Source: a virus (Duplodnaviria; Caudoviricetes). Taken from it: a stretch of DNA of 64,000 bases. Made by a program: the position numbers and the translations under genes. Below the pieces are notes generated by a model. That model had not been told where the DNA came from. It worked only from the letters and a program-made list of their open reading frames with translations, and ran no database searches. The stretch is from the IMG/VR virus record IMGVR_UViG_3300025018_000093, one strand, 5' to 3'. Positions 18,845 to 50,106 of the stretch are shown here, piece after piece. Position 1 is the first letter of the stretch, and each line of letters starts with the position of its first letter.

Positions 18845-19234
18845 ATGTCGGTAGCGAACCCCGAGACGCTAGATGAATGGATGGAGTATATCTCCATCCT
18901 TCAGGAGGATGAGATCCTCAGCAAAGCCAAGGCAGCCAACTCCAAACGCTTCTTCGATAAGCTGCTGGAAGAGGGCTTCACGATGAATGACCTCGACGTC
19001 ATCATGAAAGCTCTCGCGCGAAAGTTCCTAGACTTCAACCTACAACCCCCAGGAGGTCTGGTGGACTTGTCCGACCTCTTGACGGCTGCGGACGTGACAA
19101 GCATGAAGCTCCCAGATCCCAAGACAGTGGACTATGAGCCTGAGCCAGATGAGGTAGACCGAGAGGTCGATGCTCTTGACCTAGAAACAGACTGGGAGGA
19201 GACAACGCCCCTCCTGCCCACAGAAGTGGTCTAG
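18845..19234 (+). CDS. acidic hypothetical protein
   Basis: GGAGG RBS then ATG; MSVANPETLDEWMEYI. Confidence 0.75.
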   Translation: MSVANPETLDEWMEYISILQEDEILSKAKAANSKRFFDKLLEEGFTMNDLDVIMKALARKFLDFNLQPPGGLVDLSDLLTAADVTSMKLPDPKTVDYEPEPDEVDREVDALDLETDWEETTPLLPTEVV

Positions 19235-20520
19235 GACAGGTACTCTGCAAACACGCCCTGCTCCCGAGCTTGTTGCAGGGTCCTCTTCAGAAACTGGACC
19301 TGATTCGAGATTGTACTGCGGCTGACATTCAACTCCACAGCCAACTCCGATGCTCTGCCCATGTCTGTTAGCCCCTGCACCAGATACTGCAATCTCTCCT
19401 GGCGCTCCGGGAGGGGAGCAGAGTCTCGAAGCACCTCTTCAATCTTGTCCAGGAAGCGTTGCCCCAAGTCGGCTTCCAGGATTTGGTCTTCCAGGTCGGC
19501 AGAATAACCCCAGTGCTGGTGCCACCTCGGAGTCTCATCCCCACCATATGCTAACACACAGGCGGGGCGTTCCAGGTAGGAACGCTCTTGCTGCACGAGC
19601 ATTTGAATTTGACGCTCTTGGGTATGGTACTCGGAGTGCTTGTCCACATTTCTTCTCTTCCAGGTACGCACTTCTAATGGAGTGCGTGCCCCCCGAAGAC
19701 AACGGGTGACCGGATCTCGACCCCAAGGGCGCATCTCACTGATGGCAGACCTGTAGGCGAACCAGACAAGATTCAAGAGGGAAGGGTCCCTCCCTTGTGA
19801 CAAGAACTTGTAGAGGGAATCCTTTGCAATGCAGCGAGTTATGAAGTGCATCGCATGGTCCTCTACCAGATCGGATGCGGCTGAAATGCGGAGCTTCTTC
19901 CGAAGGAAAAGACAGATTTCCGGGTACACGACATTCCAGTTCTTTTCAAAGTAGCGTGCCGTGAGATTCTCTTTCAGAGTAGTCGCCTGCACGGGAAGCG
20001 TGGTGTCTTCTGGGAGGGGTGTCTCCACCACGGAATCCGGGGTGACCACAAAGGAGACTTTTCGGGGGCCAGAGCCAGAGCCAGAGCCAGAGCCCCCCTT
20101 CTTACCCTTACGCTTTTCCTGTACGGGCTCTTCCTGTACGGGCTCTTCCTGTACGGGCTCTCCCTCTTCAAACCCCTGACTGAGGAGCTTGGACTTCTCT
20201 ACCCCAGCCTCCGTGAGAGCCCACATCCCGCGCTTCTGTCCCTGCTGGCAGGGGATGCGTAGTTTTGTGTTCTCCCCCCGATGCTCTGCACGCTGGTTTC
20301 GGAAAGCCCACTCGATACACAGCACCAAGCGGGACTTTCCGTCCTTTCTGCTTTCGGAGATTCCACCCGAACTACGATCCAGACCCCTGTCGAAGAGGAC
20401 TTTATCGATGACCACACTACTGAGCACCTCGGCCTCCGGCACAAAGTCCGTCAGCTCGCCAATGACCCGAACAACGTCATCGTAGAAAAACGACGCGGTA
20501 GGCCGCTCTTGATTGTCCAT
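19231..20520 (-). CDS. sigma-70/ECF-like factor with an N-terminal winged-helix (Mrr_N-like) domain
   Basis: region 2-like VEDHAMHF...WFAYRSAISEMR; C-terminal HTH ELAVELNVSRSTISNQ; N-terminal RGMWALTEAG; EEPVQ x3 and GS linker. Confidence 0.65.
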   Translation of the reverse strand: MDNQERPTASFFYDDVVRVIGELTDFVPEAEVLSSVVIDKVLFDRGLDRSSGGISESRKDGKSRLVLCIEWAFRNQRAEHRGENTKLRIPCQQGQKRGMWALTEAGVEKSKLLSQGFEEGEPVQEEPVQEEPVQEKRKGKKGGSGSGSGSGPRKVSFVVTPDSVVETPLPEDTTLPVQATTLKENLTARYFEKNWNVVYPEICLFLRKKLRISAASDLVEDHAMHFITRCIAKDSLYKFLSQGRDPSLLNLVWFAYRSAISEMRPWGRDPVTRCLRGARTPLEVRTWKRRNVDKHSEYHTQERQIQMLVQQERSYLERPACVLAYGGDETPRWHQHWGYSADLEDQILEADLGQRFLDKIEEVLRDSAPLPERQERLQYLVQGLTDMGRASELAVELNVSRSTISNQVQFLKRTLQQAREQGVFAEYLS

Positions 20521-20583
20521 GTTGTCCTCTGTTGACTTGGGCTCTAGGAGCCACAGTCTCGTCTAGGGGGTAGCTGCGATAAG

Positions 20584-22965
20584 GTGAGGTCCACGTCGGG
20601 ATGTCATGGATCGCAGCCTCCAGTATCCTATCTTGGATTGAGGTGTTCTGTCAAGGGAATCGTCACCAACACAGAGCCCGTTTTTTGGGCGTTGTCTGGG
20701 GCAGTAACAGTACAATCATTTGACTATAGAGAACTGGTTAGAGAGTGTAGGACCTTGTCAAGTTACCTGGGGAAGAAGATGCGGCGCAACCTCGATGAAC
20801 TGCTAGCTCTCCGTGCAAAGTTACGCAAAGCACTATCCGTGCGCGTGGGATCGTGCGCGAGGTCTCGTGTGCGGAAAATGAAGCTACGCAAGGCGTACTC
20901 CAAGGTCTCACAGGAGTTGTCTGACACACAGCTCGACATTCTGGCTCGACTTCAGTTCCTTGAGGGAGCATTGAAAAGTCGCAGTGCGAAGGATAAGCTA
21001 GAGTGGATCAAGGGGAAGCCCTTGCGAGCGGCGCTCGCGGAGGCAACAACGTACATCCAAGAGAACTACGGTGAGCTGCCCGAGATATCCCGTTACACCT
21101 GGATTACCAAGGAAAGTACGGGATTCTACCGGGATGTGCGGCGACGCTTGCTTCCCTTGCTCAAGCAATCCACAACTGCACCCGACGACATCATGCAGAT
21201 GCTCCTCACAGGTATGAACCCCTCCGGGGAGACCTTCTACATCGACAAGAACAACGAGAAGATGGAGCTTGACCGAATGTTCCAGGTCGCGGGCTTCAAG
21301 AGCCGCGCGATGCTCCGTCGAGACTTCTCAAACAGGGACGGGAAACTGACGCCCTACGACTTCTCGAACATCATTGCTTCATGGGCGCAGAAGAAAGCGC
21401 TCATCATGATCAAGATGGAGACGCGAGACAAAAAACGACGAGAGAAGTACTGGGGAGAGGAGCTACATCCGCCCGGTGACACCTGGGATGGACCTTCCAG
21501 TACCTGGGAGGGAGAGGCGCAGGATGTCAGCAGTGTTCTCCCAGGGGAAGCTGTGCACGAGGACTGGGGTGCCCAGTCAGAAGCCTGGGCCTTCTCCAGC
21601 ATGCTCTTCCACACGGACACTCCAGAGGCACAGAGGGTTCGAGACTGGCTCTACAACGTGGTGTTCCCACAGCATACAGCTGTGGACATTACCATGCGCA
21701 CTCTCTTCGATATGCTGGAAGAGGGGAACTGGGATGTGTCGGGAAGCAAGCCTCTCCTGCGTCTCCAAAAAATGAACGAGGAGCTGGCAAAGCGCGTTGG
21801 CAAAGCCCTGGGTAAGGACATGAGTCCGAACGCAAAAGGGCAGTACACTAAACTCAATGCTGCACGAGAAGCCGGGTTCAAGAAAATCACCCAGGCCACA
21901 GAGAACCTCAAGAAAGTCGACGTCCGGGCTCTTCGCGAGGAAGAGACTAACATTCAGAAGTTCCTGGATGGCTTGGCACAAAGGGCAGAGGGAGTCCCGA
22001 ACACAAAAGCCAAGGCAGAACTATCTGCAGCACATCGAGAGCAGCAAGCAAACAGGAAAGCAGTCAAAGACCTCCGTGCTCAGATCGAAAGTCTGCAGAC
22101 TCAGGCTACTTCCCGTGGTGGCGTCAGCCCTCGTGTTGTGAAGAACCTAGCCAAGGTCAAAGAGGAACTCAGTGCTGTGCGTAGTTCCCTTACAGCAAAG
22201 CGGAAGGAGTACCGTGCTCTTCAAGCGGAGGCCGTTACTTCTGCGAAGCCTCCCCTGGCAATCCGAAAGCAGCTCGCGACGGCAAAGAAAGAGTTAGCGC
22301 TGCGGGGAGATGCCGTGGAGGTTGCGGATGCTGCGTTTATGGAAGCACAGCGGGCAGCCGAAACAAGTCCCCGCCTCACACCCAAGCTGCGCAAGCAACT
22401 CGACAACACGAGAAAGGCAAAACGCAAGGCCCGCTTACAATACACACTCCAGCGAAAAGCGCTGGATGCATTGGCAGCGGAGGCTATCGCTACAGCAGTG
22501 CTCCCGAGGAAGCTGCAAGCGACAATGACCAAGGTGGAGGGGGAGTTGCAGGTGCTCTCTGTCAAGTTCAAGGACAGCTCTACCAAGGCAAAGGCACTGG
22601 AAGAGCGTGTAAACGCAGGTGGAACTGCACAACGCAACACTGCGGCGATCTCCAACCTCCAAGCACAGCTTGCTTCTTACGAGCAGAAGTCCGAGGAAAC
22701 AAGACAGCAAATCTACCTCCTGGAGAACGCCGCCAAGGGTGGACTCCCGACCGCAGAGGAAAAGGTAGAAGCCGCAGAGGCTACGAAAGCCCTCCAAGTA
22801 ATTCGTGGAAAGTTGTCTCTCCTGACGATGCTCGACGCCATGGAGCTTTCGGGGATGGGCTTCGGTCGACTGCGAAAGGCTAAGACGTTGTCAGCACATC
22901 GCATCCTCTACCGCTGGGCAAGGAAAAGAGGAGCAAGCTGGCAGCGGATTAGGGGTAGAGCTTGA
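20584..22965 (+). CDS. large protein with a long coiled-coil C-terminal half (true start uncertain, probably 20779-20878)
   Basis: 793-aa ORF with an Ala/Lys/Arg-rich heptad region. Confidence 0.7.
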   Translation: MRSTSGCHGSQPPVSYLGLRCSVKGIVTNTEPVFWALSGAVTVQSFDYRELVRECRTLSSYLGKKMRRNLDELLALRAKLRKALSVRVGSCARSRVRKMKLRKAYSKVSQELSDTQLDILARLQFLEGALKSRSAKDKLEWIKGKPLRAALAEATTYIQENYGELPEISRYTWITKESTGFYRDVRRRLLPLLKQSTTAPDDIMQMLLTGMNPSGETFYIDKNNEKMELDRMFQVAGFKSRAMLRRDFSNRDGKLTPYDFSNIIASWAQKKALIMIKMETRDKKRREKYWGEELHPPGDTWDGPSSTWEGEAQDVSSVLPGEAVHEDWGAQSEAWAFSSMLFHTDTPEAQRVRDWLYNVVFPQHTAVDITMRTLFDMLEEGNWDVSGSKPLLRLQKMNEELAKRVGKALGKDMSPNAKGQYTKLNAAREAGFKKITQATENLKKVDVRALREEETNIQKFLDGLAQRAEGVPNTKAKAELSAAHREQQANRKAVKDLRAQIESLQTQATSRGGVSPRVVKNLAKVKEELSAVRSSLTAKRKEYRALQAEAVTSAKPPLAIRKQLATAKKELALRGDAVEVADAAFMEAQRAAETSPRLTPKLRKQLDNTRKAKRKARLQYTLQRKALDALAAEAIATAVLPRKLQATMTKVEGELQVLSVKFKDSSTKAKALEERVNAGGTAQRNTAAISNLQAQLASYEQKSEETRQQIYLLENAAKGGLPTAEEKVEAAEATKALQVIRGKLSLLTMLDAMELSGMGFGRLRKAKTLSAHRILYRWARKRGASWQRIRGRA

Positions 22966-23595
22966 GAGCTAGAAAATCTAGTGGACCCCTTTTCCACACA
23001 ACAAGTCTGGGAAATCTCCTCAGCATCTTGCGATCTGGGAAGCTCATCGCGAGCAGTCAGGACTACAACGATGCATTCGTGTCGCTCTCCGAGATCCCCT
23101 ACACGGGTGACATCAGCCACAACGACGTGATTCTGGTGTTCCGACCAGGATCGGCTGTTCATACCCAAGTCATCCAGGTCAAGTACACAGAGGGCTGGTA
23201 TGACCAGCACCCTGAGCACTCTAGCTACATTGCAGGAGCTGGGTGGCAGGAACAGTACGTGGAGCCCGAATGGGAGCCCCCAGAGAACTTGGACGAGGAC
23301 GGGAGACCCTGGCGATCAGGATGCTGCTTGGAGAGAGGCTGAACTGCTCTCTTTTCTGCACAAGTCCAATGAGAGGGAGTGGGTTTCGAAGACTCCTAAC
23401 GAGGACGTCCGGTTCAACCCAGATGATCTGCTCGGAGTCCTAGTTGTTTCCCCTAGTGCTGTACCCAGCATCGAAAAAGCCCTCTTGAAAGAGGGCTACC
23501 TAGGTGTCAAAACCAAGGCGATGTCCGAGGGTGTTCGGTCTCTCATGCGAGCATCTCTCAAAAAGCGACAGGCGCAGCTCCGTTTGCTCTCTTGA
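22962..23595 (+). pseudogene. ADP-ribosyltransferase-fold protein split by a +1 frameshift
   Basis: LFHTTS...SILRSGKL...FVSLSE in one frame and NEREWVS in the other; deleting one G at 23301-23303 joins DEDG-DPGDQDAAW. Confidence 0.55.
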
Positions 23596-24164
23596 CGACT
23601 CAGCTCCCTGTCTGCTATCCTATGCGAGACCCTCGAAGGATGTCGGTGGGTTTTGAGCGCTCTCCGTTCAAAGCTAACCGACAGGCCGAAAGGACTCTGG
23701 TCACGGGCTGCCAGCGAGGGGTCGGTTGAAACTGAAGAAGAGAGGAACCCTGGCCTTGTTGACGCTTCAGTACCGAAAAGCCCTGGGATTAGGCTAACCC
23801 CATCGAACTATCAGGAGGTGAGGAACCCCTGTCGATGGACATGCCCTGGATGACATACACACCGCAGAAGGGATCTGAGGGAACGTGATTGGGTCATCAA
23901 GTTTGAGTTAGTCGCCCGGAGAGATAAGAGAGCGAACTCGAACTTTCCTCTTTAAGCACCCCAATAGTAATTAGAGAAACACAAGAAAAAAGAACTCTGT
24001 ATCGGCTTCCATAGAGAGTAGCAAAACACGTCGTTTCAGGTTTACGGTCGATCACCCAAGGTAGCTGGGGGTCAGATTAGCCCCGCTTCAAGATTCAGCC
24101 TATCAGGCTTTACTCTTGAGGCTATGGGGAGGGGGGAGTTGCGTCTGCTCCGACCCCCTGGACC

Positions 24165-24724
24165 AAAGTTTCGAAAGTTTCGCCCCAAAGTTTCGCCCCA
24201 AAGTTTCGCCCCAAAGTTTCGAAAGTTTCCCAAAGTTTCGCTGAGTGTCGAATCACTAGGGATGACGCGGGGTTGGAAAGTTTCGAAAGTTTCGTCCCAA
24301 AGTTTCGAAAGTTTCCCAAAGTTTCGCTGAGTGTTGAATCACTAGGAATGACGCGGGGTTGGAAAGTTTCGAAAGTTTCGTCCCAAAGTTTCGAAAGTTT
24401 CCCAAAGTTTCGCCCCCAAAGTTTCGCTGAGTGTTGAATCACTAGGGATGACGCGGGGTTGGAAAGTTTCGAAAGTTTCGTCCCAAAGTTTCGAAAGTTT
24501 CCCAAAGTTTCCCAAAGTTTCCCAAAGTTTCGCTGAGTGTCGAATCACTAGGGATGACGCGGGGTTGGAAAGTTTCAAAAGTTTCGTCCCAAAGTTTCGA
24601 AAGTTTCCCAAAGTTTCCCAAAGTTTCGCTGAGTGTCGAATCACTAGGGATGACGCGGGGTTGGAAAGTTTCAAAAGTTTCGTCCCAAAGTTTCGAAAGT
24701 TTCCCAAAGTTTCGAAAGTTTCCC
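24165..24724. repeat. nested repeat array: ~37 copies of AAAGTTTC interleaved with five 37-bp units
   Basis: 37-bp unit GCTGAGTGTYGAATCACTAGGRATGACGCGGGGTTGG at 24240, 24326, 24426, 24532, 24628. Confidence 0.97.
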
Positions 24725-24736
24725 GGAGGCCCTCAC

Positions 24737-25423
24737 ATGCCCAAGAAGTACCAGCAGCCGCAAGTCGGATTTCAGGTTGCAAAGCCTCCTTCAACAGACC
24801 CTGACGAGCGAACCCTGTCTGCGATTTCAATCCGCCTGACAGGGACAATGCCTCTGGAGCAGGACTATCAGTCACAGGTGCTGGATACTGGGTGGGGCTC
24901 TTCCTCTCCCTGGTTGCAATCGATCAGCTTCTCAGGTGGACCTGGTGGTCAGATTCCGATTTCCCAGGCTGTGGGTATCCCCACAACAGCTGGTACTAGC
25001 GAGGCAACTGTCAGTGAGACGCTAGTCAGTCACGAGGTTCGCCTCCCACAGGACCTGGAGGTCTACCTTGGAGGCATGTTTGAATCCTTAGCTATAGGGT
25101 GCTTCTATCTCCTGTTGGATATGGCTAGAGTGCAATTCCCCTCTTCCAGCCGCTCTGCTCCTTCCCAAAAGGTCTGGGTGTTTCAAAAGGCCCCTACGCT
25201 GTTGCGTCCAGGTGATGCAGCCTTGTTCCCGCTGGTGGTAGACTGGAGACGATGGAACCGGGCTGTGGTACCCGTCCTGAAAGATGAGCGCTGGAGTCCT
25301 CTCATCCCCATCAACAACCAAAGAGTAGCTCAGGGGAGCTACTCGGAGTTCATAGCCCTTCTGGAAGGGTCCCTTCTTCAGTCATTCAAGGATGCAGGGT
25401 ACCTTCCGCAGGATCTGGCATGA
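24737..25423 (+). CDS. hypothetical protein
   Basis: GGAGG RBS then ATG directly after the array. Confidence 0.75.
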   Translation: MPKKYQQPQVGFQVAKPPSTDPDERTLSAISIRLTGTMPLEQDYQSQVLDTGWGSSSPWLQSISFSGGPGGQIPISQAVGIPTTAGTSEATVSETLVSHEVRLPQDLEVYLGGMFESLAIGCFYLLLDMARVQFPSSSRSAPSQKVWVFQKAPTLLRPGDAALFPLVVDWRRWNRAVVPVLKDERWSPLIPINNQRVAQGSYSEFIALLEGSLLQSFKDAGYLPQDLA

Positions 25424-25629
25424 GTATCCCTGCAGATAGACCACAGAAGGCTGTAGCTGTTCCTGCTGGGAAGTCCGTGATGATTTCCTGCCAAGCAACA
25501 CGCGGGTGCCCTGGAAGGCAAGCTATCCTTGTCTCTGTTTTCGACTTGGAGGGTGCTTTCGGGTACGCGGGGCGCAGGACGAGATTTCGATGTCAAACTT
25601 GTGGCCGTGTGTTTGTCATCCGCCACTGA
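25420..25629 (+). CDS. small zinc-ribbon protein
   Basis: CQATRGC...CQTCGRVF. Confidence 0.7.
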   Translation: MSIPADRPQKAVAVPAGKSVMISCQATRGCPGRQAILVSVFDLEGAFGYAGRRTRFRCQTCGRVFVIRH

Positions 25630-25691
25630 CAGAAGTCCCCGGTTTCGCGTAGAATCCCTGGTGGGTTGTGCGGAACGCGAGGGGTCTGAGC

Positions 25692-26330
25692 ATGTCTTGT
25701 TCTTTGTTTCACGGTCCTGGTGCTCGTGATGCAGCCATAGCAGAGGCCTCCCGGATTGGACGAGAAGTCCATCCTCCGATGGGAGACGAGGGCCTGAAAG
25801 TTGAGGACGCACGGGAAGCGGTTCTGATACTGTCCTCACCTGCTGTTGGGGATGACCATGGAGTTCTCCTGATCGGCCCTATGGACCAGGCTAATTCCAG
25901 AGCTTCCGATGTACTCTTGAAGAGCATTGAAGAGCACCGAGGCATGGATGTGGTTCCGGTGCTTTGGGCCTGGGACCTGGCAGAGGTGTCCCTCACGATT
26001 CGCTCTCGTTGCATCCCTCACTGGTCCCCTGGGGAGATGGCGGAGCTACCAGCAGAGACCTTGGAGGTGGCCTGGCAGGTATGTGATGCTGTCTTAGAGG
26101 GGGACTTGCATCGGATCATTTCGGGGGTGCAGGAGGGGAAGACGGACCTGGAGATGCTAGGGAGATGTCTGGCGCACTACATTGCTGTGAGTGCCATGGA
26201 GGGCCAGAGTGAGTTTCTTTGTGTCTGGGATGCCATACGACCGCAGCTCCAGTACACCGTGCTGAGCCCTGTGGGGATTTCTCATGCTCTCCTGCATGCT
26301 GCTCAGGGTAAGACTCGGGGGGGTGCATGA
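25692..26330 (+). CDS. holB: clamp-loader delta-prime-like subunit (short, no Walker A)
   Basis: ASDVLLKSIEE and LTIRSRC (SRC) motifs. Confidence 0.7.
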   Translation: MSCSLFHGPGARDAAIAEASRIGREVHPPMGDEGLKVEDAREAVLILSSPAVGDDHGVLLIGPMDQANSRASDVLLKSIEEHRGMDVVPVLWAWDLAEVSLTIRSRCIPHWSPGEMAELPAETLEVAWQVCDAVLEGDLHRIISGVQEGKTDLEMLGRCLAHYIAVSAMEGQSEFLCVWDAIRPQLQYTVLSPVGISHALLHAAQGKTRGGA

Positions 26331-27319: not shown

Positions 27320-27401
27320 TAGCGGTTCGATACCCTGCACTGTGTGGGTTCTGACAAGTCAAAGGAAACTCCCTTTGCAGTGGTAACAGGAGATAGGTTC
27401 T

Positions 27402-29576: not shown

Positions 29577-29614
29577 GTTTTTCCAGCAAAGGAAGGACAC
29601 TTCCCTCTCAGAAT

Positions 29615-32427: not shown

Positions 32428-32450
32428 TAGTCACGGGAAGGGGGTCCTTT

Positions 32451-32786: not shown

Positions 32787-32795
32787 GACGGAGGA

Positions 32796-35399: not shown

Positions 35400-35407
35400 G
35401 ACCCAAT

Positions 35408-36688: not shown

Positions 36689-36691
36689 TCA

Positions 36692-39914: not shown

Positions 39915-39925
39915 AGGGGAGCAGT

Positions 39926-40900: not shown

Positions 40901-40971
40901 GAGCTTCGTTAAGTTGCCATAGTAGCTGACAAACTGTACCTGTTTACATAGATTGTGAACAGGAGGTGCTT

Positions 40972-41604
40972 GTGCAGTATGTCAACACCAAGACCGCACG
41001 TTCCTTGTTCGGTGTCCACCCTAACACACTTCGGAAATGGGCAAATGCAGGACAGATCAAGTACATACGAACTCCGTCGGGACGACGGCTGTATGACTGC
41101 TCATCACTGTCCTCCGTCCCCAGATCAAAAATCGTGTATGCCCGTGTGTCCTCACGAGGACAACGACACGACCTTGAATCCCAAATCCGAGCACTACGAG
41201 CTAGCTATCCAGACCACGAAGTGGTCTTCGATATCGCCAGCGGTCTTAACTTCAAGCGAAAAGGACTTGACTCCGTACTGGAGCGAGTTCTGTCTGGAAA
41301 GGTCGAAGAAGTTGTCGTTGCTCACAAAGACCGGCTCTGTCGGTTCGGATTTGAACTCTTCGAGTCCATTGCAAGATTCCACAACACAAGGATCGTGGTT
41401 CTCGACGCTGCACAGGAATCACCTCAAGCGGAGCTTGTCCGAGACCTTCTTTCCATCATCCACGTATTCTCCTGCCGTCTTTACGGCCTCCGAAAGTACA
41501 GTAAACAGATCAAGGAAGATTCGGATCTACCCAAGGCCGGAGAGCCTTCCGAGGATTCAGCAGTACCTGGGGATTTCGAGGTATTGGTACAACAAGGCGA
41601 TTGA
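40972..41604 (+). CDS. tnpA: IS607 TnpA serine recombinase
   Basis: MerR-like HTH GVHPNTLRKWA; IVYARVSS; VAHKDRLCRFGF; SCRLYGLR. Confidence 0.95.
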   Translation: MQYVNTKTARSLFGVHPNTLRKWANAGQIKYIRTPSGRRLYDCSSLSSVPRSKIVYARVSSRGQRHDLESQIRALRASYPDHEVVFDIASGLNFKRKGLDSVLERVLSGKVEEVVVAHKDRLCRFGFELFESIARFHNTRIVVLDAAQESPQAELVRDLLSIIHVFSCRLYGLRKYSKQIKEDSDLPKAGEPSEDSAVPGDFEVLVQQGD

Positions 41605-42616
41605 GTACTTACGTCAAAAAGGTACGAAAGCTTCGCTGTATGAGGTTCGGAAGATTCAAGCTCTTGAACATCCCGAGTGGGCACTAACGTGCCCTCAGCG
41701 TATTCGTGAACACGCTATCGCAGACGCTTGCGCAGCAGTGCGCAATGCTAAGCGAAAGTTCGTGACTGTAGGCGGTTTTCAGGCAGTCAAATTCCGGTCC
41801 CGCAAGAATCCAGTACAGGGGTTCGGGTTTGATGCTCAGAGTCTCCACGAGACTTTTGTCTTCCGAGGGAAGAACACCTGCGGCTTCGCCGCAACAGAAC
41901 CATTCGAAGCAGAGCTAGAGGGTTGTAGGGTCAAACGAGAATCAGGGCGATGGTTTCTGACTCTACCCTGTCGGGTAGCTATATCCAAACCTGAGAACCA
42001 AAGGCTAGGAGTTGTAGCACTTGACCCTGGGGTACGCACGTTTGTTAGCTACTACAATCCGTTGTGTTCGGGCTCCTTCGGAGCCGGTGACTTTCGGCGT
42101 TTGTATCGGCTGTGTCTGGGGCTAGACAAGTTGATCTCGAAGAAGGCGCTTGCACCTTCGAAGTGTAAGCGGAACATGCGCAAAGCAGAGCAACGCTTAC
42201 GTTGGAAGATCAAAGATTTTGTTGCGGACATCCACAACAAAGTTGCTCACTTTCTAGCCACGAACTTCGATACGATTCTGATACCGTACTTCAAGACCAG
42301 TAAGATGGTTGGCCGCCTGCGGTCGAAGACCGCGCGCAGCATGCTGACGTGGGCACACCATCGTTTCAAGACAGTTTTGAAGTCGGTTGCAGAGCGCTAC
42401 AGCGCTCTGGTTGTCGAGGTATCAGAGGCTTGGACGTCGAAGACGTGTTCGTACTGCGGGGAAGTACAGAACATAGGTTCGAAGAAAGTCATGCGGTGCG
42501 CCTGCGGCGCGACCGTAGACCGTGATTCAAACGGTGCACGAGGGATTTTCCTTCGTGCTTTGTCGGCAACGACCTGGACGGGCGAACCCCGTCTTGCATC
42601 TGTTAGCAACAGTTAG
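41267..42616 (+). CDS. tnpB: TnpB RNA-guided nuclease with rearranged RuvC (start uncertain)
   Basis: KIRIYP, ALDPGVRTF, ILIPYF, VSEAWTSKTCSYCG, CACG, DRDSNGARGI. Confidence 0.9.
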   Translation: MTPYWSEFCLERSKKLSLLTKTGSVGSDLNSSSPLQDSTTQGSWFSTLHRNHLKRSLSETFFPSSTYSPAVFTASESTVNRSRKIRIYPRPESLPRIQQYLGISRYWYNKAIEYLRQKGTKASLYEVRKIQALEHPEWALTCPQRIREHAIADACAAVRNAKRKFVTVGGFQAVKFRSRKNPVQGFGFDAQSLHETFVFRGKNTCGFAATEPFEAELEGCRVKRESGRWFLTLPCRVAISKPENQRLGVVALDPGVRTFVSYYNPLCSGSFGAGDFRRLYRLCLGLDKLISKKALAPSKCKRNMRKAEQRLRWKIKDFVADIHNKVAHFLATNFDTILIPYFKTSKMVGRLRSKTARSMLTWAHHRFKTVLKSVAERYSALVVEVSEAWTSKTCSYCGEVQNIGSKKVMRCACGATVDRDSNGARGIFLRALSATTWTGEPRLASVSNS

Positions 42617-42634
42617 CAGAAAAGGTAGCAGTAC

Positions 42635-42913
42635 ATGATGGACCACAGCACCAGATTCCAGCAGGCGGTCAAGAAGCGAGATACGCTGCGAGGGAAGTTG
42701 GACCGCTTGCAAGGAAAGCTGGAGAGTGCGCAGTCGCGCCTCTCGGAAGTAGAGGCACAGTGCCGGGCAAAGAACATTGACCCCAGCCAGATCGATGAGC
42801 TGATTGAGAAGGTGGAGAAGATTCTTCTGGGGCGGGTCGAGAACATCGAGCAAAGAGTGCAGGAAGCTGAGGACCAGCTTGCCCCTTACCTTGAGGAGGT
42901 CGCGTCGCTATGA
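42635..42913 (+). CDS. small coiled-coil protein
   Basis: heptad pattern; coupled to the next gene. Confidence 0.8.
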   Translation: MMDHSTRFQQAVKKRDTLRGKLDRLQGKLESAQSRLSEVEAQCRAKNIDPSQIDELIEKVEKILLGRVENIEQRVQEAEDQLAPYLEEVASL

Positions 42914-44079
42914 AGTTGACAGCAAAGAAGGAGGATCTTGAGCGGGCGCTTAAGATCGGAAGTACCACTGTGGCAAACTCCGGTGACGAGTTGCGGGCAC
43001 ACTATCTTTTCCGCTACCGCAATGGGAAGATGGAGGTTCTGGGAAATGACGAGCGCCTTCTGGGAAGTGTCGTCCTAGAGTGCGAAGTTGAGGGGGCCTC
43101 CGACAATCCTGACGAGAACAGGTTTACCGTAGAGGCAGACCGAATCAATCGGTGGCTTTCCGCATCTCCCAAGGGAAACGTCTCTCTTCGATTGAAGGAT
43201 GGAAAAGTGATTGCCCAGGCAGCTCTGGGAAAGGTCACGTTCCGCTCTTTGGACCCCGCTCGGTTCCCGTACTGGGAGTCTCGGCTTGAAGCTGCTACCT
43301 TCACAGGGAAAATCTCTGCTTCGCGTCTGCATCGCATTCTGAAGCATGCCCAGTTGTTCATGTCCAACAACGAAGCCCAGGATCCCGAAATCTGCTCCTG
43401 TGAGTTCAAGGACAATGGGTTCCTGTACGCGACGGATGCCGCTTCTGCGACGATCATTCGTGTGGCTGGGATGGAGAAGTCGAATGCCAGGATGACGAAG
43501 AAGAAGGACATTAGCTCCTACCTCCGATTTCTGGAAGCGCACTCGGAAGACGAGATTGAGTTCTGGGAGCATGACCAGTGTCTGTTTTTGAAGACAAGTT
43601 CTGGAAACCTTTTCGGACAGACGAAGTGGAAGTATGACTTCCCGGATATCGACTTGGGGTCCGCCTTTGAGGATGCACACCACTGGTGGACCTTCTCACG
43701 GGAAGAGATGATTTCGGTGATTGGGTTCCTCACACCCAGTGCGGTCCGAGACCGCTACCAGATCCATTTCAAATTGGATGGCGTCGGGAACATTAACGTT
43801 TCCCTCACCTCCGCTGCGGGTGGAAAGGTGGAGATTCCGGTCAACTGCAAGGAATCCAAGTCCGTTGCCGATTGCGTCCCTCTCCCACAGGGTGGCTTCC
43901 CGTTGTCCTATGAGTACCTCAAGAGTGTCCTCAAGGGTTTGAGCGGAGAGTTCGTGACGATGGCCTCCAGCCAGCTCCTCAATGACGCGGGGGATCCTGC
44001 GGGTGGCTACTGCTCCTTCAAGCAGGAGGTGGAAGGCGACCAGTATCTTGTGGTGCTCGGTTGGTACGAGGAGCAATAG
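42910..44079 (+). CDS. dnaN: DNA polymerase III beta-like sliding clamp
   Basis: 389 aa; KKEDLERALK start, FPYW, LYATD and DFPDI patterns of the three-domain clamp. Confidence 0.65.
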   Translation: MKLTAKKEDLERALKIGSTTVANSGDELRAHYLFRYRNGKMEVLGNDERLLGSVVLECEVEGASDNPDENRFTVEADRINRWLSASPKGNVSLRLKDGKVIAQAALGKVTFRSLDPARFPYWESRLEAATFTGKISASRLHRILKHAQLFMSNNEAQDPEICSCEFKDNGFLYATDAASATIIRVAGMEKSNARMTKKKDISSYLRFLEAHSEDEIEFWEHDQCLFLKTSSGNLFGQTKWKYDFPDIDLGSAFEDAHHWWTFSREEMISVIGFLTPSAVRDRYQIHFKLDGVGNINVSLTSAAGGKVEIPVNCKESKSVADCVPLPQGGFPLSYEYLKSVLKGLSGEFVTMASSQLLNDAGDPAGGYCSFKQEVEGDQYLVVLGWYEEQ

Positions 44080-44083
44080 CATC

Positions 44084-44737
44084 GTGAACATCCCACAGGT
44101 TCCCTCTCTTTCAGGTCTTCAATCTAAGCTATCCCGTGCCCAGGGACGCAGAGACACACTCTTGCAGCGACTCCAGGAGGTTCGTCAGGATATCATGCAG
44201 CTGAAGGAAGAGGAGAGCCTTCTGGACCACGTGGAGACGCTCTTCCGAACGCTCATTGACGCGGAGATTTCAGAGGCCGTGAAGGCAGCCGAGGACTTGC
44301 AGACAGAGGCCCTACGGTCTGTGTTTGTAGACCAGGACTTGTCCGTGCGGGCTGACGTCTCCACGGAACGTGGGAAGGTTTCCGTGTCTCTTGTTACCAT
44401 CCAAAAGGATAAGGATGGTAACGTGACAGAGGGAGGCTGCAACGATACGTTCGGGGGCTCCGTCACAACGGTGGAATCTGTGCTGCTCCGCTTCTTGGTG
44501 CTGCTGCGCCGGAACCTTCGTCCGTTGCTTGTGCTGGATGAGTCGCTACCAGCCTTTGACCCCAACTACGCGACCAACATGGGACAGTTTCTGATGGCCG
44601 TCTGCGAGCGCATGGGTGTCGACATCCTAATGGTGACGCACAACCCGATGTTCTACGAGTCTGCTCATCGAACGTACAGGATTCGCCGCCACCAGGACGG
44701 AGTCAAGTTCGACTTGGTGCATGAGGTGTCGAGATGA
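44084..44737 (+). CDS. sbcC: SbcC/Rad50 C-terminal half
   Basis: short coiled coil, FGGSV signature, LVLDES (Walker B), VTHN (H-switch). Confidence 0.85.
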   Translation: MNIPQVPSLSGLQSKLSRAQGRRDTLLQRLQEVRQDIMQLKEEESLLDHVETLFRTLIDAEISEAVKAAEDLQTEALRSVFVDQDLSVRADVSTERGKVSVSLVTIQKDKDGNVTEGGCNDTFGGSVTTVESVLLRFLVLLRRNLRPLLVLDESLPAFDPNYATNMGQFLMAVCERMGVDILMVTHNPMFYESAHRTYRIRRHQDGVKFDLVHEVSR

Positions 44738-45519
44738 AACGAGAGGGGCAAATCCGGCAGCAGTACAAGCAGGTAAAGTACCGGATACGAAAGAAGTTGC
44801 TGGATAAGAACATGCGGGTGGAGCCCAGTAATTGTTGCTTCCATGCCCCGGTTTCCGTGGAGAAGTCCTCTGGGGTTGTTCTTTGTGCCTACAAGGAAAT
44901 GGCTGAGGATGCAGATTGGGACGTTGTTGTCTGCGATGTGGACCAGGCAAGACAGTGCGACAGGTTTGCACCCGAAGCAACGCCTGACGAGATCAAGTCT
45001 CGTTTCGAGAGATTCCTGGCAGCCGCAGAGACTTCGGGCAATGCTCAGGCTATCGGAACACTGGCGTATCACTACCCAGACTTGGCTGCTTTGCTCTGGG
45101 TACTAGAACCCTGGACTTCCCAGGGGGAGACTTCCTGCGAGGAGTGTGGAACAGGAGGGCGTTGCTATGAAGCTGGTCAACTGGACTCTGAGGGTTCTGG
45201 GGCATCTTCTGTACCCAATACTTCTGCTAGTGATACGATCCTCGTAGAGGATGAGCACGAGAATCCCCAGGGATTGGAAGAGGAGGTTTTTTCGGAGACC
45301 TCCTCTTCGTCCCTTTCGGTCCTACCTCTGGCAGCCTGTGTTGCACCTGACAAGGTTGAGGAGGATGCCGACGCTGAGCACCCCGTTATGACTTCCGCAG
45401 AGGTTCTGCGGAACCAGGAGCGTCTCCCTTCGAGACGGTGGCTTCTCGTGAAGGGTAGTTTTGTGGCAGCCGCAACGGCTCTGCTTTTTCTCCTCATCTA
45501 CTGGTCTCTTTCGGGGTAG
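44734..45519 (+). CDS. hypothetical protein with a C-terminal transmembrane helix
   Basis: FVAAATALLFLLIYWSL tail. Confidence 0.7.
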   Translation: MKREGQIRQQYKQVKYRIRKKLLDKNMRVEPSNCCFHAPVSVEKSSGVVLCAYKEMAEDADWDVVVCDVDQARQCDRFAPEATPDEIKSRFERFLAAAETSGNAQAIGTLAYHYPDLAALLWVLEPWTSQGETSCEECGTGGRCYEAGQLDSEGSGASSVPNTSASDTILVEDEHENPQGLEEEVFSETSSSSLSVLPLAACVAPDKVEEDADAEHPVMTSAEVLRNQERLPSRRWLLVKGSFVAAATALLFLLIYWSLSG

Positions 45520-45524
45520 CTTAG

Positions 45525-46130
45525 ATGAACCCTGCTCTCTTGCAACTACTTCCTACTCCACCCCTAGAGCGGGAGTCCTCGCTGGCTCTCATTCGAGAGT
45601 TTGTGGTGGACCCCCGTTCGTTCCCCTACCTGGTTTCTGCGTCAAAGACGCCATTTCTGTGGGTTGAGCGTCCTCTTATGGGCCATCTTGTGAGAGCGTT
45701 CATCCGCAGAGACCAGGATGTAGACCTCATCTTTCAGCAGGTTCTTGCTACGGTCATTGACCGTGGGGAGACGTATACCTACGGCAACATCCACCCCTAC
45801 ACGGAGGAAGGGGTGCAGAGTGCTCTGGAGTACGTGAGTTATTTTCTGAGTGGCGGTGAAACAGAGATAGTCAACCCTCTCCACCAGTTGCTAGAGCTTT
45901 TAGTGCCAGAGGGATCTCCGTGGGCAGAGACATCGCATTTGGACTTCCAGGGGATCAAAGTTCCAGTTGAGGTGGCGAAGTGGCTCCCCAAGGATACGGC
46001 TGTAGTTGTCCCCTTAGACAGAGGGTTCCTGGGGGACGTCCATCTTTTTGGCCAGACATCCTCCGCAGTGGTTGTGCATAACCCTGCACGCGGCATTGCG
46101 GTTGTCAGGGGTACCCAGGATGGGGGCTGA
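45525..46130 (+). CDS. hypothetical protein
   Basis: operonic ORF. Confidence 0.7.
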   Translation: MNPALLQLLPTPPLERESSLALIREFVVDPRSFPYLVSASKTPFLWVERPLMGHLVRAFIRRDQDVDLIFQQVLATVIDRGETYTYGNIHPYTEEGVQSALEYVSYFLSGGETEIVNPLHQLLELLVPEGSPWAETSHLDFQGIKVPVEVAKWLPKDTAVVVPLDRGFLGDVHLFGQTSSAVVVHNPARGIAVVRGTQDGG

Positions 46131-46827
46131 CACCACAACCGAGATGCGGTCTTGGTTGCAGGAGAACCTGTCTCGCTTTTCCCTTTCCGAAGAGGTCGAG
46201 GAGTATCTCTTGGGCCGGGGGGCAAAGGAGGAGTCCTACAGGGAGTTGGAAATTAAGACCTGGGCTGCGTCCAGCTCTCCTGCACCTTGCAAGGATTTCC
46301 GTGCGAGGTATGGGGACCGAGGAGAGAAACTGCGAGGGTGTCTCGTCACCCCGTACCACTCCCCCTCGGGAAGTCTGATTGGGTTTGAGGCCCGCAGGAC
46401 CACCCAGAAATGGATCACAGACTACCGTCTCATGCCGGAGTGCAAGTGGCTTCCTGTGTGGCTAGGTACACGGAGAGCCATCCCAAAGCTCTGGGATGGT
46501 GGTGAGGTGTGGATTGTGGAGGGGTTGTTTGACCTTTTCGCGATGGAGTGGGTCATACCAAGCACGGATGCGATCTTGGCGTCTGTGCGCGCAGCCCTCA
46601 GTTACTCCCATGTGCAGTTCTTGCGGAGGCTTTCCACGAAGTACGTGCACATGGTGTACGATGAGGACAGTACCGGGAGAGATGGAAATGAGAAGGCCAT
46701 TTTTTCCCTAGATCGCGTAGGTGTGCCGGGGGGTGTTGTGCGCTACTGTGGCGGAAAAGACCCCGGAGAGATTTGGGATAGAGGCGGAGAAGAAGGTCTC
46801 CTCCTCTCTTTCAGCAACATGAGGTGA
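46120..46827 (+). CDS. TOPRIM primase-like protein without a zinc-binding domain
   Basis: YLLGRG, IVEGLFD, VYDEDSTG, KDPGE. Confidence 0.8.
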   Translation: MGADTTTEMRSWLQENLSRFSLSEEVEEYLLGRGAKEESYRELEIKTWAASSSPAPCKDFRARYGDRGEKLRGCLVTPYHSPSGSLIGFEARRTTQKWITDYRLMPECKWLPVWLGTRRAIPKLWDGGEVWIVEGLFDLFAMEWVIPSTDAILASVRAALSYSHVQFLRRLSTKYVHMVYDEDSTGRDGNEKAIFSLDRVGVPGGVVRYCGGKDPGEIWDRGGEEGLLLSFSNMR

Positions 46828-46830
46828 ATC

Positions 46831-47451
46831 ATGGATCTTTGGCTTGCAGGACCCGAGACGAGGAAGCTGTTGGAGAAGGCTATTGCGGAGTGGCACCCGC
46901 ATTTGGCGGACATTGATGCGAAGATTGCCATCTTGATGCGGGATCCCGCATCCAAGTCAGGTGGTGTCGTTTGTCTGGGAGATGCTAAGAAGGCGTCTCC
47001 CATGCTTCGCGCCCTCGGGAAGGAAGACTACATCTTCATCCTGGAGATCGCCGCCAATGAGTGGCAGGAGCTGGATGACAAGCAAAGGTTGGCCCTGATC
47101 GATCACCTGCTGTGCCAGTGTGGAGCAGTCGAGGACGAGAAGAAGGGGACCACGTACACTATCCTGAAGCCAGAGATTCAGCTGTTCAAGGCGAACCTCC
47201 GACGCTTCGGGGTTTGGATGGACATCTCCGATGAAGAGGATGATGGGGACCACGCGGCTACGACCATTGAGGACATGTTCAGTCGGGAGGCCGTGGCCAA
47301 GAGAAAGGGCAAGTCGGATGACACTCAAGTCACAATCGAGGCTGCGGGAAGTTCTGTCACGTTGACAGGGGAAGACTTCCAGGGCATCTCGAAAAAGATC
47401 AGGGGTCTCTCGAAGAAGCTGGGAAAGAGCAAGGATGACCCGGAAGAGTGA
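46831..47451 (+). CDS. phage metallopeptidase-like protein with a degenerate HExxH
   Basis: GDAKKAS...FILEIAANEW...LALIDHLLCQC. Confidence 0.55.
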   Translation: MDLWLAGPETRKLLEKAIAEWHPHLADIDAKIAILMRDPASKSGGVVCLGDAKKASPMLRALGKEDYIFILEIAANEWQELDDKQRLALIDHLLCQCGAVEDEKKGTTYTILKPEIQLFKANLRRFGVWMDISDEEDDGDHAATTIEDMFSREAVAKRKGKSDDTQVTIEAAGSSVTLTGEDFQGISKKIRGLSKKLGKSKDDPEE

Positions 47452-47546
47452 TCTCCCTGCGCGGACCATTCCGCGCCATTAGGCGCACGATCCTCGCATT
47501 TCACAGTCATGGCGAGGTGCCCCCTGTGGGGCGAGGAAACTGACGT

Positions 47547-49190
47547 ATGAGCTGGGACACTAAATATCGTCCAGTCACCTACGCTGATGTGTTGGGTCAG
47601 GAAGCTACAATCAGCATCCTGCGTCAGATCGTGAAGTCCAAGCGGGGTTTCCACCAGAGTTATCTGTTCACGGGACCCTTTGGTACCGGGAAGACAACGC
47701 TGGGTCGGATTCTTGCCCGAGCCCTCCTGTGCTCTGAGGCACGGGAGGGTAACCCCTGCGATGAGTGCCCCTCCTGTATGGAGATGCTTCGAAAGGGGAG
47801 CACGGAGTGCTTCACGGAGGTTGATGCTGCCACGAATAGCGGCAAGGAAGGCATTCGGCGTATCCTGGAGACTATCGAGTTTGGTACGTTCAGCGGAAAG
47901 CAACGGATCTACTTGTTTGACGAAAGCCATCAGCTCTCTCGGGATGCGCTGGATGCGCTTCTGAAGCCGCTGGAGGATACCCGAGGGGACACCGGGGAAC
48001 GCAAACTGGTCTGCATCTTCTGCACCACGGAACCCGAAAAGATGCGGGAGACAATTGGTTCGCGATGTGGCCCCACCTTCGCTGTTCATACGGTCCCTAC
48101 AGAGAAGACTGCAGCTCGACTTGCAGAGATATGCCAGAGGGAGGATGTCCCCTTTGAGTCCGAAGCTCTGGTCCGGGTAGCCGAGAGTGTAGAAGGGCAC
48201 ATTCGAGATGCCTTCAAAGCGTGTGAAATGCTTTCGATGCAGGGAGGGATCACCCTTGCGAACGTCGAGTACTATCTCGGGCATGACCTGAATCGTTTGT
48301 ATCTATCGATCTTCGAGGGCTTGCAGGGGGAGATTTCTTCCGTCATGAACACCCTCGAACAGCTTTTAATTCGAGTTTCTCCGGCTGTGATCTACGAAAA
48401 ACTTGCCAAGGTTGCGATGTTAGCCTACAAATTAGGGTTGGGGATCAGTAAGGTCCCTTCCTACTGGGAAGCTGGGAGGTTACGGCAAATCGGAGCGAAG
48501 TACGGGGGTACCCTACTTGATCTTGCTGAAATGTTTAGCTCTCGCCCTAGGCACCCCTCGAAGGATATGCTCCGATGTGATCTTCTGTCTGTGCATCGCC
48601 GCCTCCAGAGTGGTATTCAATTAAAGTACGTGGAGTCCTCTCCTCTCGCTTCGGCAGGGGAGGTTGTTCTTTCACAACCTGAGACAACCCGAGTGCAGGT
48701 AGCGATAAGCGCGGAGCCGCAGGTGAAGTCTGCAGTCCCGGCCTCGGCAGCGGTTCCTTCTCCCCAGGTGAGTCCCTCTCCTGGGGAGGAAGGTGCCCTC
48801 CGGAAGCCTTCTCTCTTGCCAATACCCTCCGACCAGAGTAGCAATTTCCTGACTACTAGTGGGGTTTACAACCCACCGTGGGGGCAGAGTAAAAGTCGGA
48901 TCGAGGCTATCAAGCGTTTGGAAAACGGTGGCATTGTTTCCAAGGACAGTCCGGTCACGTCTGCTCCGCAGAGTGCTCAGAGCTTTTCTCAACCCCGCGC
49001 TCAGGAAGTCGCTACAGAAACCGCGAGCGAGTTGCCGGCAAACTTGTTTTGCTCTCTCGTAAACGCACTTTCGTCTGAGTTGAGCAAGAGTGGGAAAAAG
49101 CAAAGATCCCAGCATGAAGAGGCCGACAGCCAAGCAGTTCTTCGACCCCCTGGTGAAGGTCCTGGGGAGGTTGACGGACTACCGTGCTGA
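47547..49190 (+). CDS. dnaX: DNA polymerase III gamma/tau-like clamp-loader ATPase
   Basis: KYRPVTYADVLGQ, GPFGTGKTT, CDECPSC, EVDAATNSG, FDESH, TIGSRC. Confidence 0.92.
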   Translation: MSWDTKYRPVTYADVLGQEATISILRQIVKSKRGFHQSYLFTGPFGTGKTTLGRILARALLCSEAREGNPCDECPSCMEMLRKGSTECFTEVDAATNSGKEGIRRILETIEFGTFSGKQRIYLFDESHQLSRDALDALLKPLEDTRGDTGERKLVCIFCTTEPEKMRETIGSRCGPTFAVHTVPTEKTAARLAEICQREDVPFESEALVRVAESVEGHIRDAFKACEMLSMQGGITLANVEYYLGHDLNRLYLSIFEGLQGEISSVMNTLEQLLIRVSPAVIYEKLAKVAMLAYKLGLGISKVPSYWEAGRLRQIGAKYGGTLLDLAEMFSSRPRHPSKDMLRCDLLSVHRRLQSGIQLKYVESSPLASAGEVVLSQPETTRVQVAISAEPQVKSAVPASAAVPSPQVSPSPGEEGALRKPSLLPIPSDQSSNFLTTSGVYNPPWGQSKSRIEAIKRLENGGIVSKDSPVTSAPQSAQSFSQPRAQEVATETASELPANLFCSLVNALSSELSKSGKKQRSQHEEADSQAVLRPPGEGPGEVDGLPC

Positions 49191-50106
49191 GGTAGGGGTA
49201 CCCTGCGCCCAGGTTCTGGATCAAGTTCTAGCGGAGGTGGGGGTTGATCCGGTACAAAGCCCCTGGCCGCTTACAGGCTCGGCTCCACTGGGTCTATACA
49301 GAATCATTGGGTTTGCCTACCGCAACCAGAGACCCAACATTGAGACCTCCAGGTACACGGGGAAGCGTTCATCCTTGTGCATGGACTTTGGTCGCGGTAT
49401 CTGGGGGCTCACACATAGCGGGGTGGAGAGATCCCGAGAATTAGCCAATGTTGTTCTTCCCAGGCTTCTCTCGGACCTGCACCCGGAAACCAGCGGTGAC
49501 CTTGACCCAGAGTTGATACCCGAGAGGGAGCCCGAGCAGGATACCCGAGATGCTTTGACATGGGTGGTGCTTGAGCTATCTTACCTGGGAGAGATCAAGG
49601 TGATGGATGGCTCCCTTGAGCAAGCTCTCCGTCGTTCCCTGCGCTTGGATGCAAATCATCCTATCTTCATCCCGGCAACTTCCTATTGTCGAAATGACCG
49701 CGTGGTGACCCTCCAGCTCATGGAGGGTTACGTGTTTGTGGGGGCCGGTCTTGATGAGGTGGAGTACTTTACGCTGGAGCGGACAGGTTACGTAAAGCAG
49801 GTCATGTCCGTCATTGGGCCAAACGGGATGCGTGTCTTGCACACAATCCCGAACCGCAATGTTGAGGATATGCAGCGGAAGCTGCGTAGCATGGCAATGC
49901 TGGATGTGAATCCTGGAGATCAGGTGAAGGTAGTTGAGGGGAAGTATGCGGGACTTCTGATGGAAGTTCTTTTCGTTGAGGAAGAGTATGTCATTCTGCA
50001 GACAAGTGGTTTGAGATCCCTCAGCGTGATCACACGCCTGCCAAAGATGTTCATGGCTCTGGATAAGACAGAAGAAGAGATGTGGGAGGGGGAGGATGAA
50101 CTCTGA
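49114..50106 (+). CDS. nusG: NusG paralogue (NGN+KOW) with an N-terminal winged-helix (Mrr_N-like) domain
   Basis: WVVLEL, IFIP, LMEGYVFV, GDQVKVVEGKYAG; N-terminus GRGIWGLTHSG. Confidence 0.8.
   Translation: MKRPTAKQFFDPLVKVLGRLTDYRAEVGVPCAQVLDQVLAEVGVDPVQSPWPLTGSAPLGLYRIIGFAYRNQRPNIETSRYTGKRSSLCMDFGRGIWGLTHSGVERSRELANVVLPRLLSDLHPETSGDLDPELIPEREPEQDTRDALTWVVLELSYLGEIKVMDGSLEQALRRSLRLDANHPIFIPATSYCRNDRVVTLQLMEGYVFVGAGLDEVEYFTLERTGYVKQVMSVIGPNGMRVLHTIPNRNVEDMQRKLRSMAMLDVNPGDQVKVVEGKYAGLLMEVLFVEEEYVILQTSGLRSLSVITRLPKMFMALDKTEEEMWEGEDEL

Follow-up and report, generated by a model that had tools for sequence, protein, structure and literature searches.

A predicted Mrr_N-like winged helix shared by a sigma-like protein and a NusG paralogue of a huge phage

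Introduction

Why should a factor of transcription initiation and a factor of transcription elongation from the same phage begin with the same accessory domain? This question is raised by a 64,000-nucleotide stretch of viral DNA (IMG/VR record IMGVR_UViG_3300025018_000093, Caudoviricetes), referred to below as the window, which encodes a sigma-like protein and a NusG paralogue with similar N-terminal parts. The window derives from a huge phage known from metagenomes alone. Region 2 of sigma factors and the NGN domain of NusG dock on the same beta-prime clamp helices of RNA polymerase. Sigma factors and NusG compete for this one site and define the switch from initiation to elongation. The original prediction, made from the sequence of the window, proposed that both phage factors are recruited to a common signal, which is treated here as a hypothesis.

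Results

The two proteins share their N-terminal domain

The sigma-like protein (P0001, 429 amino acids) is encoded by the open reading frame 19231-20520 on the minus strand. The NusG paralogue (P0002, 330 amino acids) is encoded by 49114-50106 on the plus strand, the longest reading frame starting upstream at GTG 49090. BLASTP of both proteins aligned residues 4-115 of P0001 with residues 1-112 of P0002 at 36% identity (E 4e-15), and no further similarity between them was detected outside the N-terminal ~115 residues. Judged by this alignment the similarity is far beyond chance. Thus, the claim that the first ~110 residues of both proteins are homologous was borne out, and all sequence motifs quoted in its favour were found in P0001 and P0002. 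Within the 64-kb window, tblastn and a six-frame search with hidden Markov models (HMMs) detected exactly two copies of the domain, and the six-frame HMM search detected one sigma-like domain. In both proteins a low-complexity linker joins the winged helix to its partner domain, the linker of P0001 containing three EEPVQ repeats, a basic patch and a Gly-Ser run. The two proteins are composed as follows.

20167..20517, minus strand: winged-helix (Mrr_N-like) domain of P0001, residues 2-118 (HMM domain 2-118, E 7e-33)
19981..20166, minus strand: low-complexity linker of P0001, residues ~119-180 (translation; outside all HMMs)
19240..19980, minus strand: sigma-70-family-like part of P0001, residues 181-427 (profile, TIGR02937, AlphaFold2/Foldseek, ESM Atlas)
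19693-19965, minus strand: sigma2-like stretch of P0001, residues ~186-276
19261-19494, minus strand: sigma4-like helix-turn-helix (HTH) of P0001, residues ~343-420
49114..49458, plus strand: winged-helix (Mrr_N-like) domain of P0002, residues 1-115 (HMM domain 1-115, E 2e-39)
49459..49548, plus strand: acidic linker of P0002, residues ~116-145 (translation; between the winged-helix HMM and the NusG-like alignment)
49549..50106, plus strand: NGN-KOW NusG-like part of P0002, with NGN ~146-255, KOW ~264-300 and an acidic tail (Pfam, TIGR00922, profile)

The shared domain is modelled as a divergent Mrr_N-type winged helix

The isolated N-domains of P0001 and P0002 had no match in Pfam or PHROGs, and a profile of the domain retrieved nothing significant among PDB sequences. 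A profile of the two copies was then searched against 1.84 billion representative proteins and retrieved 122 clusters at E <= 1e-3, 48 of them at E <= 1e-10. Of 118 proteins retrieved in this way, 14 matched the Mrr_N family (PF14338) at E <= 1e-3 (best E 2.7e-10), and P0097 (30.8 bits) and P0132 (32.4 bits) exceeded the Mrr_N gathering score of 29.5 bits. At the level of sequence, the link of the window copies to Mrr_N is thus a transitive one that runs via homologues.

Based on an alignment of 144 domain instances, AlphaFold2 returned a winged helix in which the helices H1-H2-H3 are followed by a beta-hairpin wing and H4 (predicted local distance difference test, pLDDT, 92; predicted template modelling score, pTM, 0.85). 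In a Foldseek search of Swiss-Prot the best match of this model was E. coli Mrr, residues 1-98 (E 9.5e-4, probability 1.0, template modelling score, TM, 0.63). The next rows were far weaker, and RNA polymerase delta subunits were among the weak rows (E 0.36-0.95, TM 0.34-0.43, root mean square deviation, rmsd, 7-13 Å). Furthermore, PF14338 was present in 7 of the 10 nearest ESM Atlas cluster sets (TM 0.58-0.65, rmsd 2.4-3.4 Å), its partners there being HNH nucleases, Mrr nucleases or an N6/N4 methyltransferase. Searches of the PDB with Foldseek and a wide VIA comparison gave generic winged helices only (Z <= 8.6; Rok, F-93, MarR, MukF, Hel308), and no solved Mrr_N-like structure stood out in these fold searches. 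Conservation within the domain is centred on H1, on H3 (A-F/Y-R-N-x-R) and on the wing (R-G-x-W-x-L-T-x-x-G).

The original prediction had likened the domain to the N-terminal winged HTH of Mrr. Mrr_N is indeed the nearest fold, and some homologues pass the PF14338 gathering score; the confident winged-helix model together with the homology of the two copies also agrees with a fold common to both proteins. On these grounds, we assign the shared domain to a divergent sub-family of the Mrr_N-type winged helix.

The C-terminal parts resemble a sigma factor and NusG

To characterize the partner of the winged helix in P0001, a profile of its C-terminal ~230 residues and 64 relatives was compared to PDB sequences. 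The best match was FliA, aligned along the entire sigma factor (E 3.6e-4), with numerous sigma factors among the further matches. P0001 itself matched TIGR02937 (sigma70-ECF) with residues 199-418, covering positions 11-164 of the 165 in the model (E 9.5e-5), and five of the 118 relatives matched Sigma70_r4. In the AlphaFold2 model of this part (pLDDT 84) the top 50 Foldseek rows in the PDB were all sigma factors, though with E >= 0.048, and its ESM Atlas neighbours were mostly Sigma70_r2/r4 clusters (best TM 0.45/0.57 over 153 residues). A VIA comparison gave Z ~9 but an rmsd of 23-30 Å and is not decisive. The family has a conserved motif of its own after region 2 (P-V-C-R ... G-A-R-T). The proposal of a sigma-like C-terminal part in P0001 is thus supported by collinear FliA and TIGR02937 matches, by Foldseek and by the ESM Atlas neighbours, and we describe this part with moderate confidence as sigma-like with the order sigma2-linker-sigma4.

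The C-terminal part of P0002 matched the Pfam families NusG (E 0.006, residues 170-253) and KOW (E 0.016, from residue 267), and weakly the UpxY antiterminator family (E 0.0017). A profile of 22 NusG-like sequences aligned with bacterial NusG over NGN and KOW (2lq8, E 1.8e-4; 8syi_G over positions 9-158 of the query, E 0.005) and with the KOW of Spt5 (E 3e-9). The identification of the 49114 protein as a NusG paralogue was therefore upheld: NGN is followed by KOW in collinear order, at scores under the curated cut-offs. The window also encodes a free-standing KOW-like protein of 98 amino acids (817-1113, minus strand), which shares 42% identity over 53 residues with the KOW region of the NusG paralogue (E 3e-10).

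Architecture census

The architectures in which the domain occurs were surveyed in the 122 profile clusters (50% identity); all members looked up were metagenomic. The dominant context, found in ~68 clusters, places one to three winged helices ahead of the sigma-like domain. Fusions to NusG account for 21 sequences, 14 with an N-terminal winged helix as in P0002 and seven with a C-terminal one, two of the latter carrying a double winged helix. The original prediction had named both fusion types as a search target, and both are present in number. The remaining partners are a Cys-rich domain of ~190 residues (21 clusters), a SprT-like, DUF2786 and DUF7168 protein (two clusters) and a PP-loop-like N-terminal part (two); stand-alone forms number eight. 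A nuclease or methyltransferase partner was not found in the census.

The Cys-rich family (P0097-P0138) has two CxxC-type clusters in its C-terminal domain. In a complete 436-kb IMG/VR phage related to the window phage (G001) the gene of its Cys-rich protein (L005, 1498-2352) directly follows a 409-codon gene, whose product, judged by its sequence, looks like a MoxR-type AAA ATPase. The two proteins with a PP-loop-like part (P0030 and P0031, ~520 amino acids) combine an N-terminal PP-loop ATPase-like region (S-F-G-M-G-V-D-S) with a C-terminal winged helix; they had no match in Pfam or NCBIfam and are possibly DNA-modifying enzymes.

The NusG fusion arose more than once

A maximum-likelihood tree of the 144 domain instances was poorly resolved. 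The domain of P0001 falls into a clade (96% support) with the sigma-like proteins P0020/P0047, the SprT-like proteins P0021/22 and the stand-alone proteins P0026/27, and that of P0002 groups with other N-terminal NusG fusions. The domains of the C-terminal NusG fusions occupy at least two or three positions apart from the N-terminal ones. Since the two copies of the window fall into different old sub-clades, they are old paralogues and not the product of a recent duplication.

The locus of the NusG paralogue was compared between the window and its relatives. The best phage match of the window is LR745208.1, a 485-kb uncultured phage (L001 at the NusG locus, L002 at the sigma locus); G001 is represented by L003 at the NusG locus. 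The window contributes two neighbouring genes.

50096..50707, plus strand: tandem sigma-70 region-4 protein P0003 (Sigma70_r4_2 E 7e-12, two stretches; TIGR02937 E 2.8e-16)
47547..49190, plus strand: DnaX-like clamp-loader gene (tblastn, 50% identity to LR745208.1)

P0003 has two sigma-70 region-4 HTH domains and no region 2, and its gene overlaps the NusG-like gene by 11 nucleotides. All related loci examined, namely L001, L006 and the P0035 contig, keep the NusG-like and tandem-sigma4 genes as a pair. The DnaX-like gene is the conserved upstream neighbour and overlaps the start of the NusG-like gene, and the genes syntenic to it gave DNA_pol3_delta2 matches. The order Toprim, dnaX, NusG paralogue, tandem-sigma4 is common to loci with an N-terminal winged helix (window, L006), with a C-terminal one (P0035 contig) and with none (L001, L003), and the last two genes sit just before virion genes. 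Because the locus is orthologous throughout and the fusion domains are scattered on the tree, we conclude that the NusG fusion arose more than once, at either end of an orthologous gene. This repetition is the strongest new support and suggests a functional link between the winged helix and the NusG paralogue.

No description of Mrr_N-sigma or Mrr_N-NusG fusions was found in a limited literature search, which is no proof of absence; this agrees with the earlier remark that the architecture was not known as described. A review of NusG proteins contains neither "winged" nor "fused" (PMC7819879), and a comparative overview of jumbo phages describes phage sigma factors with no mention of NusG, Mrr or HARE-HTH (PMC7824862). 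Mrr_N, sigma and NusG domains are known individually, and the novelty lies in the fusions, in their recurrent formation and in how large the unannotated sigma family is.

Genomic context

The window (G+C 55%) encodes a chaperonin, a SNF2 helicase of 1515 amino acids, ribonucleotide reductase, RecD2, RecA, TnpB, DnaX and other replication proteins. In the database the two proteins are found on a JGI metagenome contig of 261,416 bp. The sigma-like gene is syntenic with its counterparts in relatives (L007, L008, L002): it stands alone on the opposite strand, next to the gene of the SNF2 helicase. A search for related loci in IMG/VR with P0001 as query gave no match. In the orthologue of LR745208.1 (L002, 2524-3660) the place of the winged helix is taken by an N-terminal region of ~170 residues with three or four repeats of ~20 residues (L-D-L-L-G-G-V-D-A-I-N-P-L...), an alternative N-terminal module. 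One further element lies upstream of the sigma-like gene of the window.

20625..20654, minus strand: promoter-like site of the sigma-70 type, TTGACA-18-TAGGAT (consensus scan, 10/12 matches)

Three such sites were present in the scanned region against 1.9 expected; as a weak indication, this one would fit early expression of P0001 by the host holoenzyme.

The largest non-coding gap of the window holds a dense, nested array of the 8-mer AAAGTTTC with higher-order units of ~86-106 bp. The motif occurs 39 times in the window against 2 expected, 37 of these copies lying within 24165-24724, and the array is a candidate origin or site of protein loading. A similar array was not found in the syntenic gaps of L007, and none of the relatives' loci examined contains the motif more than once. 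The array was also considered as a ligand of the winged helix and discarded, as no supporting link was found and it is absent from the relatives' loci examined.

Inteins, some of them of the LAGLIDADG type, interrupt the dnaX and SNF2 genes of relatives (L001, 1203-3089; L006, 7174-10041; L007, 12662-17671). The dnaX gene of the window (547 codons) has no intein insert compared to the L001 translation, and its SNF2 gene (1515 codons) gave no intein match in a Pfam scan at E <= 0.001. A TnpB-like gene (40955-42616) with a Cas12f1-like TNB domain (E 2.6e-15) and an OrfB HTH lies within the block of replication genes.

Discussion

A portable winged helix as a proposed tether on two transcription factors

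On a slight balance of the evidence we favour the view that the Mrr_N-family winged helix is a portable nucleic-acid tether on phage sigma-like and NusG factors. Its usual home is the N-terminus of a divergent sigma-70-family factor, to which one to three copies are attached by a flexible linker. In several lineages, including the window phage, the same module was joined independently to the N- or C-terminus of a NusG paralogue. By analogy with the cellular families, both phage factors may bind to the host RNA polymerase at its clamp helices, with the flexibly linked winged helix of each held beside the upstream DNA; given the same docking site, the tethered domain would have the same neighbouring DNA within reach on either factor. 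The domain is predicted to bind duplex DNA via the helix-3 motif (A-F/Y-R-N-x-R) and the wing (R-G-x-W-x-L-T). In this way the phage factors of initiation and elongation could be held to the template, or be helped onto it, against the competition of host sigma and NusG.

A DNA tether with a common ligand is proposed because the partners of Mrr_N are DNA-acting, because tandem copies occur and because H3 and the wing are conserved across partners. Since the putative contact residues are conserved in all sub-families, a generic or phage-wide ligand appears likelier than a variable operator. The polymerase in question is probably that of the host, since no recognisable RNA polymerase subunits are encoded by the relatives: Pfam models of beta and beta-prime had no match in complete G001 or in LR745208.1. 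Jumbo phages without an RNA polymerase of their own are known to bring sigma factors, by which the host enzyme is redirected (PMC7824862). A complex prediction of the two winged helices together, made with dimerisation or a hand-over between them in mind, scored 0.00, which counts neither for nor against binding.

Several observations weigh against this view. Neither P0001:1-125 nor P0002:1-120 matched PF14338 in Pfam even at E <= 10. The TIGR02937 score of P0001 (22.1 bits) lies below the curated threshold of 42.9, and in Pfam P0001 matched neither Sigma70_r2 nor Sigma70_r4 but only HTH_11. P0002 likewise scored under the curated cut-offs for Pfam NusG (17.5 vs 22.2 bits), KOW (15.4 vs 22.3) and TIGR00922 nusG (E 3.2e-5, 23.8 bits vs 135.7). 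G001 carries the winged helix on its sigma-like and Cys-rich proteins and not on its NusG paralogue, and LR745208.1 has the NusG paralogue and no winged helix anywhere; the core system can therefore do without the module. The two copies of the window are only 36% identical and belong to different sub-clades, and could therefore have different ligands. The copy count of the winged helix extends over the 64-kb window only, and a very divergent RNA polymerase of phage origin could go unnoticed by the Pfam models. Fusion of the domain to unrelated proteins likewise leaves a signal shared by both factors hypothetical.

Other explanations

The divergence of the two copies is also an argument for a different explanation, namely that each winged helix is a sequence-specific reader of its own target, so that the ancestry of the domain is common and the signal is not. 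The sigma-like factor would then recognize an upstream promoter element, and the NusG paralogue an ops-like or late-operon loading site. The distinct old sub-clades of the two copies fit this explanation, as does the position of the NusG paralogue and tandem-sigma4 genes before the virion genes, which is typical of late-gene switches; RfaH-like NusG paralogues are, moreover, loaded at specific DNA sites (PMC7819879). We nevertheless consider it rather doubtful, because the predicted recognition helix and the wing are the most conserved parts across sub-families and partners, which would be unusual for differing specificities. One to three copies per protein and the fusions to protease-like and Cys-rich proteins fit a generic tether better, and no target motif was identified, the AAAGTTTC array not being present in the relatives' loci examined.

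A more specific form of common ligand would be the methylation of phage DNA. If the winged helix retained an ability like that of Mrr to read it, the sigma-like and NusG factors would be licensed only on phage-methylated DNA, and conservation of the contact residues across fusion partners is what a common ligand other than a sequence would lead one to expect. We regard this as unlikely. DNA-modification genes were not found among the scanned open reading frames of the window. At least five N6_N4_Mtase genes above the Pfam cut-off are present in each of G001 and LR745208.1, and C5 methylase and TGT/DpdA are absent from both whole records. As N6/N4 methyltransferases thus occur in genomes with and without the winged helix, they provide no evidence for the reading of methylation.

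Both fusion partners are, by analogy, RNA polymerase-binding factors, and the winged helix might accordingly dock on a protein instead, whether a surface of the host RNA polymerase or some phage protein common to both, and raise the affinity of both factors for the enzyme. The model for such docking would be the delta subunit of Gram-positive RNA polymerase, whose N-domain, itself a winged helix, contacts the polymerase. Many of the weak Foldseek rows are delta subunits, and attachment at either terminus via long linkers is compatible with a nearby docking surface. The delta matches are, however, poor (E 0.36 or worse, TM ~0.35, rmsd 11-13 Å) compared with the good Mrr_N matches, the known partners of Mrr_N are DNA-acting enzymes, and arrays of up to three domains as well as SprT-like and Cys-rich partners unrelated to RNA polymerase favour a nucleic-acid ligand. 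Docking on a protein is thus quite unlikely in our estimate. It would finally be conceivable that the winged helix is a promiscuous mobile module whose presence on both factors is incidental, as at least five unrelated partners, stand-alone forms and relatives whose NusG lacks the domain might suggest. We judge this highly improbable, given that an orthologous NusG gene acquired the winged helix repeatedly and at both ends, with at least 21 sequences retaining the fusion, and that sigma fusions make up more than half of the clusters, with transcription factors strongly over-represented as partners.

Significance

Overall, in one phage lineage the same portable winged helix is found on both a sigma-like and a NusG factor. 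A NusG-family factor may accordingly be loaded or retained by an undescribed route, in which an appended reader of duplex DNA would take the part that the NGN plays in RfaH. Furthermore, our analysis defines a large unannotated phage sigma family of ~68 clusters at 50% identity, all labelled hypothetical. Should phage methylation be read after all, this would constitute a new means of telling phage templates from those of the host, an epigenetic self-recognition channelling the host RNA polymerase at both initiation and elongation. Either way, the results should make transcription in huge phages that are uncultivated accessible to specific tests.

Comparison with known systems

The Mrr_N domains of E. 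coli Mrr, restriction nucleases and methyltransferases have the same fold as the phage domain and are likewise accessory to a DNA-acting partner. The phage family differs from them in its tandem arrays of up to three domains, in having transcription factors as partners and in lacking a nuclease or methyltransferase partner in all 122 clusters; the window copies, unlike PF14338 domains, are too divergent to match the Pfam model. HARE-HTH, which Aravind and Iyer reportedly described in 2012 as a winged helix on the RNA polymerase delta subunit, is comparable in being attached to an accessory protein of bacterial RNA polymerase. It is a poor structural match (TM ~0.35, rmsd >11 Å), and Mrr_N is clearly closer.

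The similarity of the P0001 family to ECF/FliA-type and jumbo-phage sigma factors is collinear over sigma2-linker-sigma4. In contrast to these, the P0001 family remains under all curated thresholds and carries one to three N-terminal Mrr_N-like domains. With respect to methylation reading alone, T4 Alc provides a precedent for a phage factor that tells phage from host DNA during transcription. Alc makes transcription dependent on template modification by terminating on unmodified DNA (PMC7824862), in contrast to the positive tethering proposed here, and is an analogue by function alone.

The NGN-KOW core of P0002 is shared with RfaH, LoaP, UpxY and Thermotoga maritima NusG, and the P0002 gene precedes a long operon as do those of RfaH/LoaP/UpxY-type paralogues. 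For RfaH and other specialised paralogues, loading takes place at particular DNA sites, and T. maritima NusG, the sole case of an extra domain in the NusG review, has a domain II that aids recruitment (PMC7819879). In RfaH the ops site is read by the NGN itself, whereas P0002 carries a separate winged helix on a flexible linker, which within its family is found at either end of the protein.

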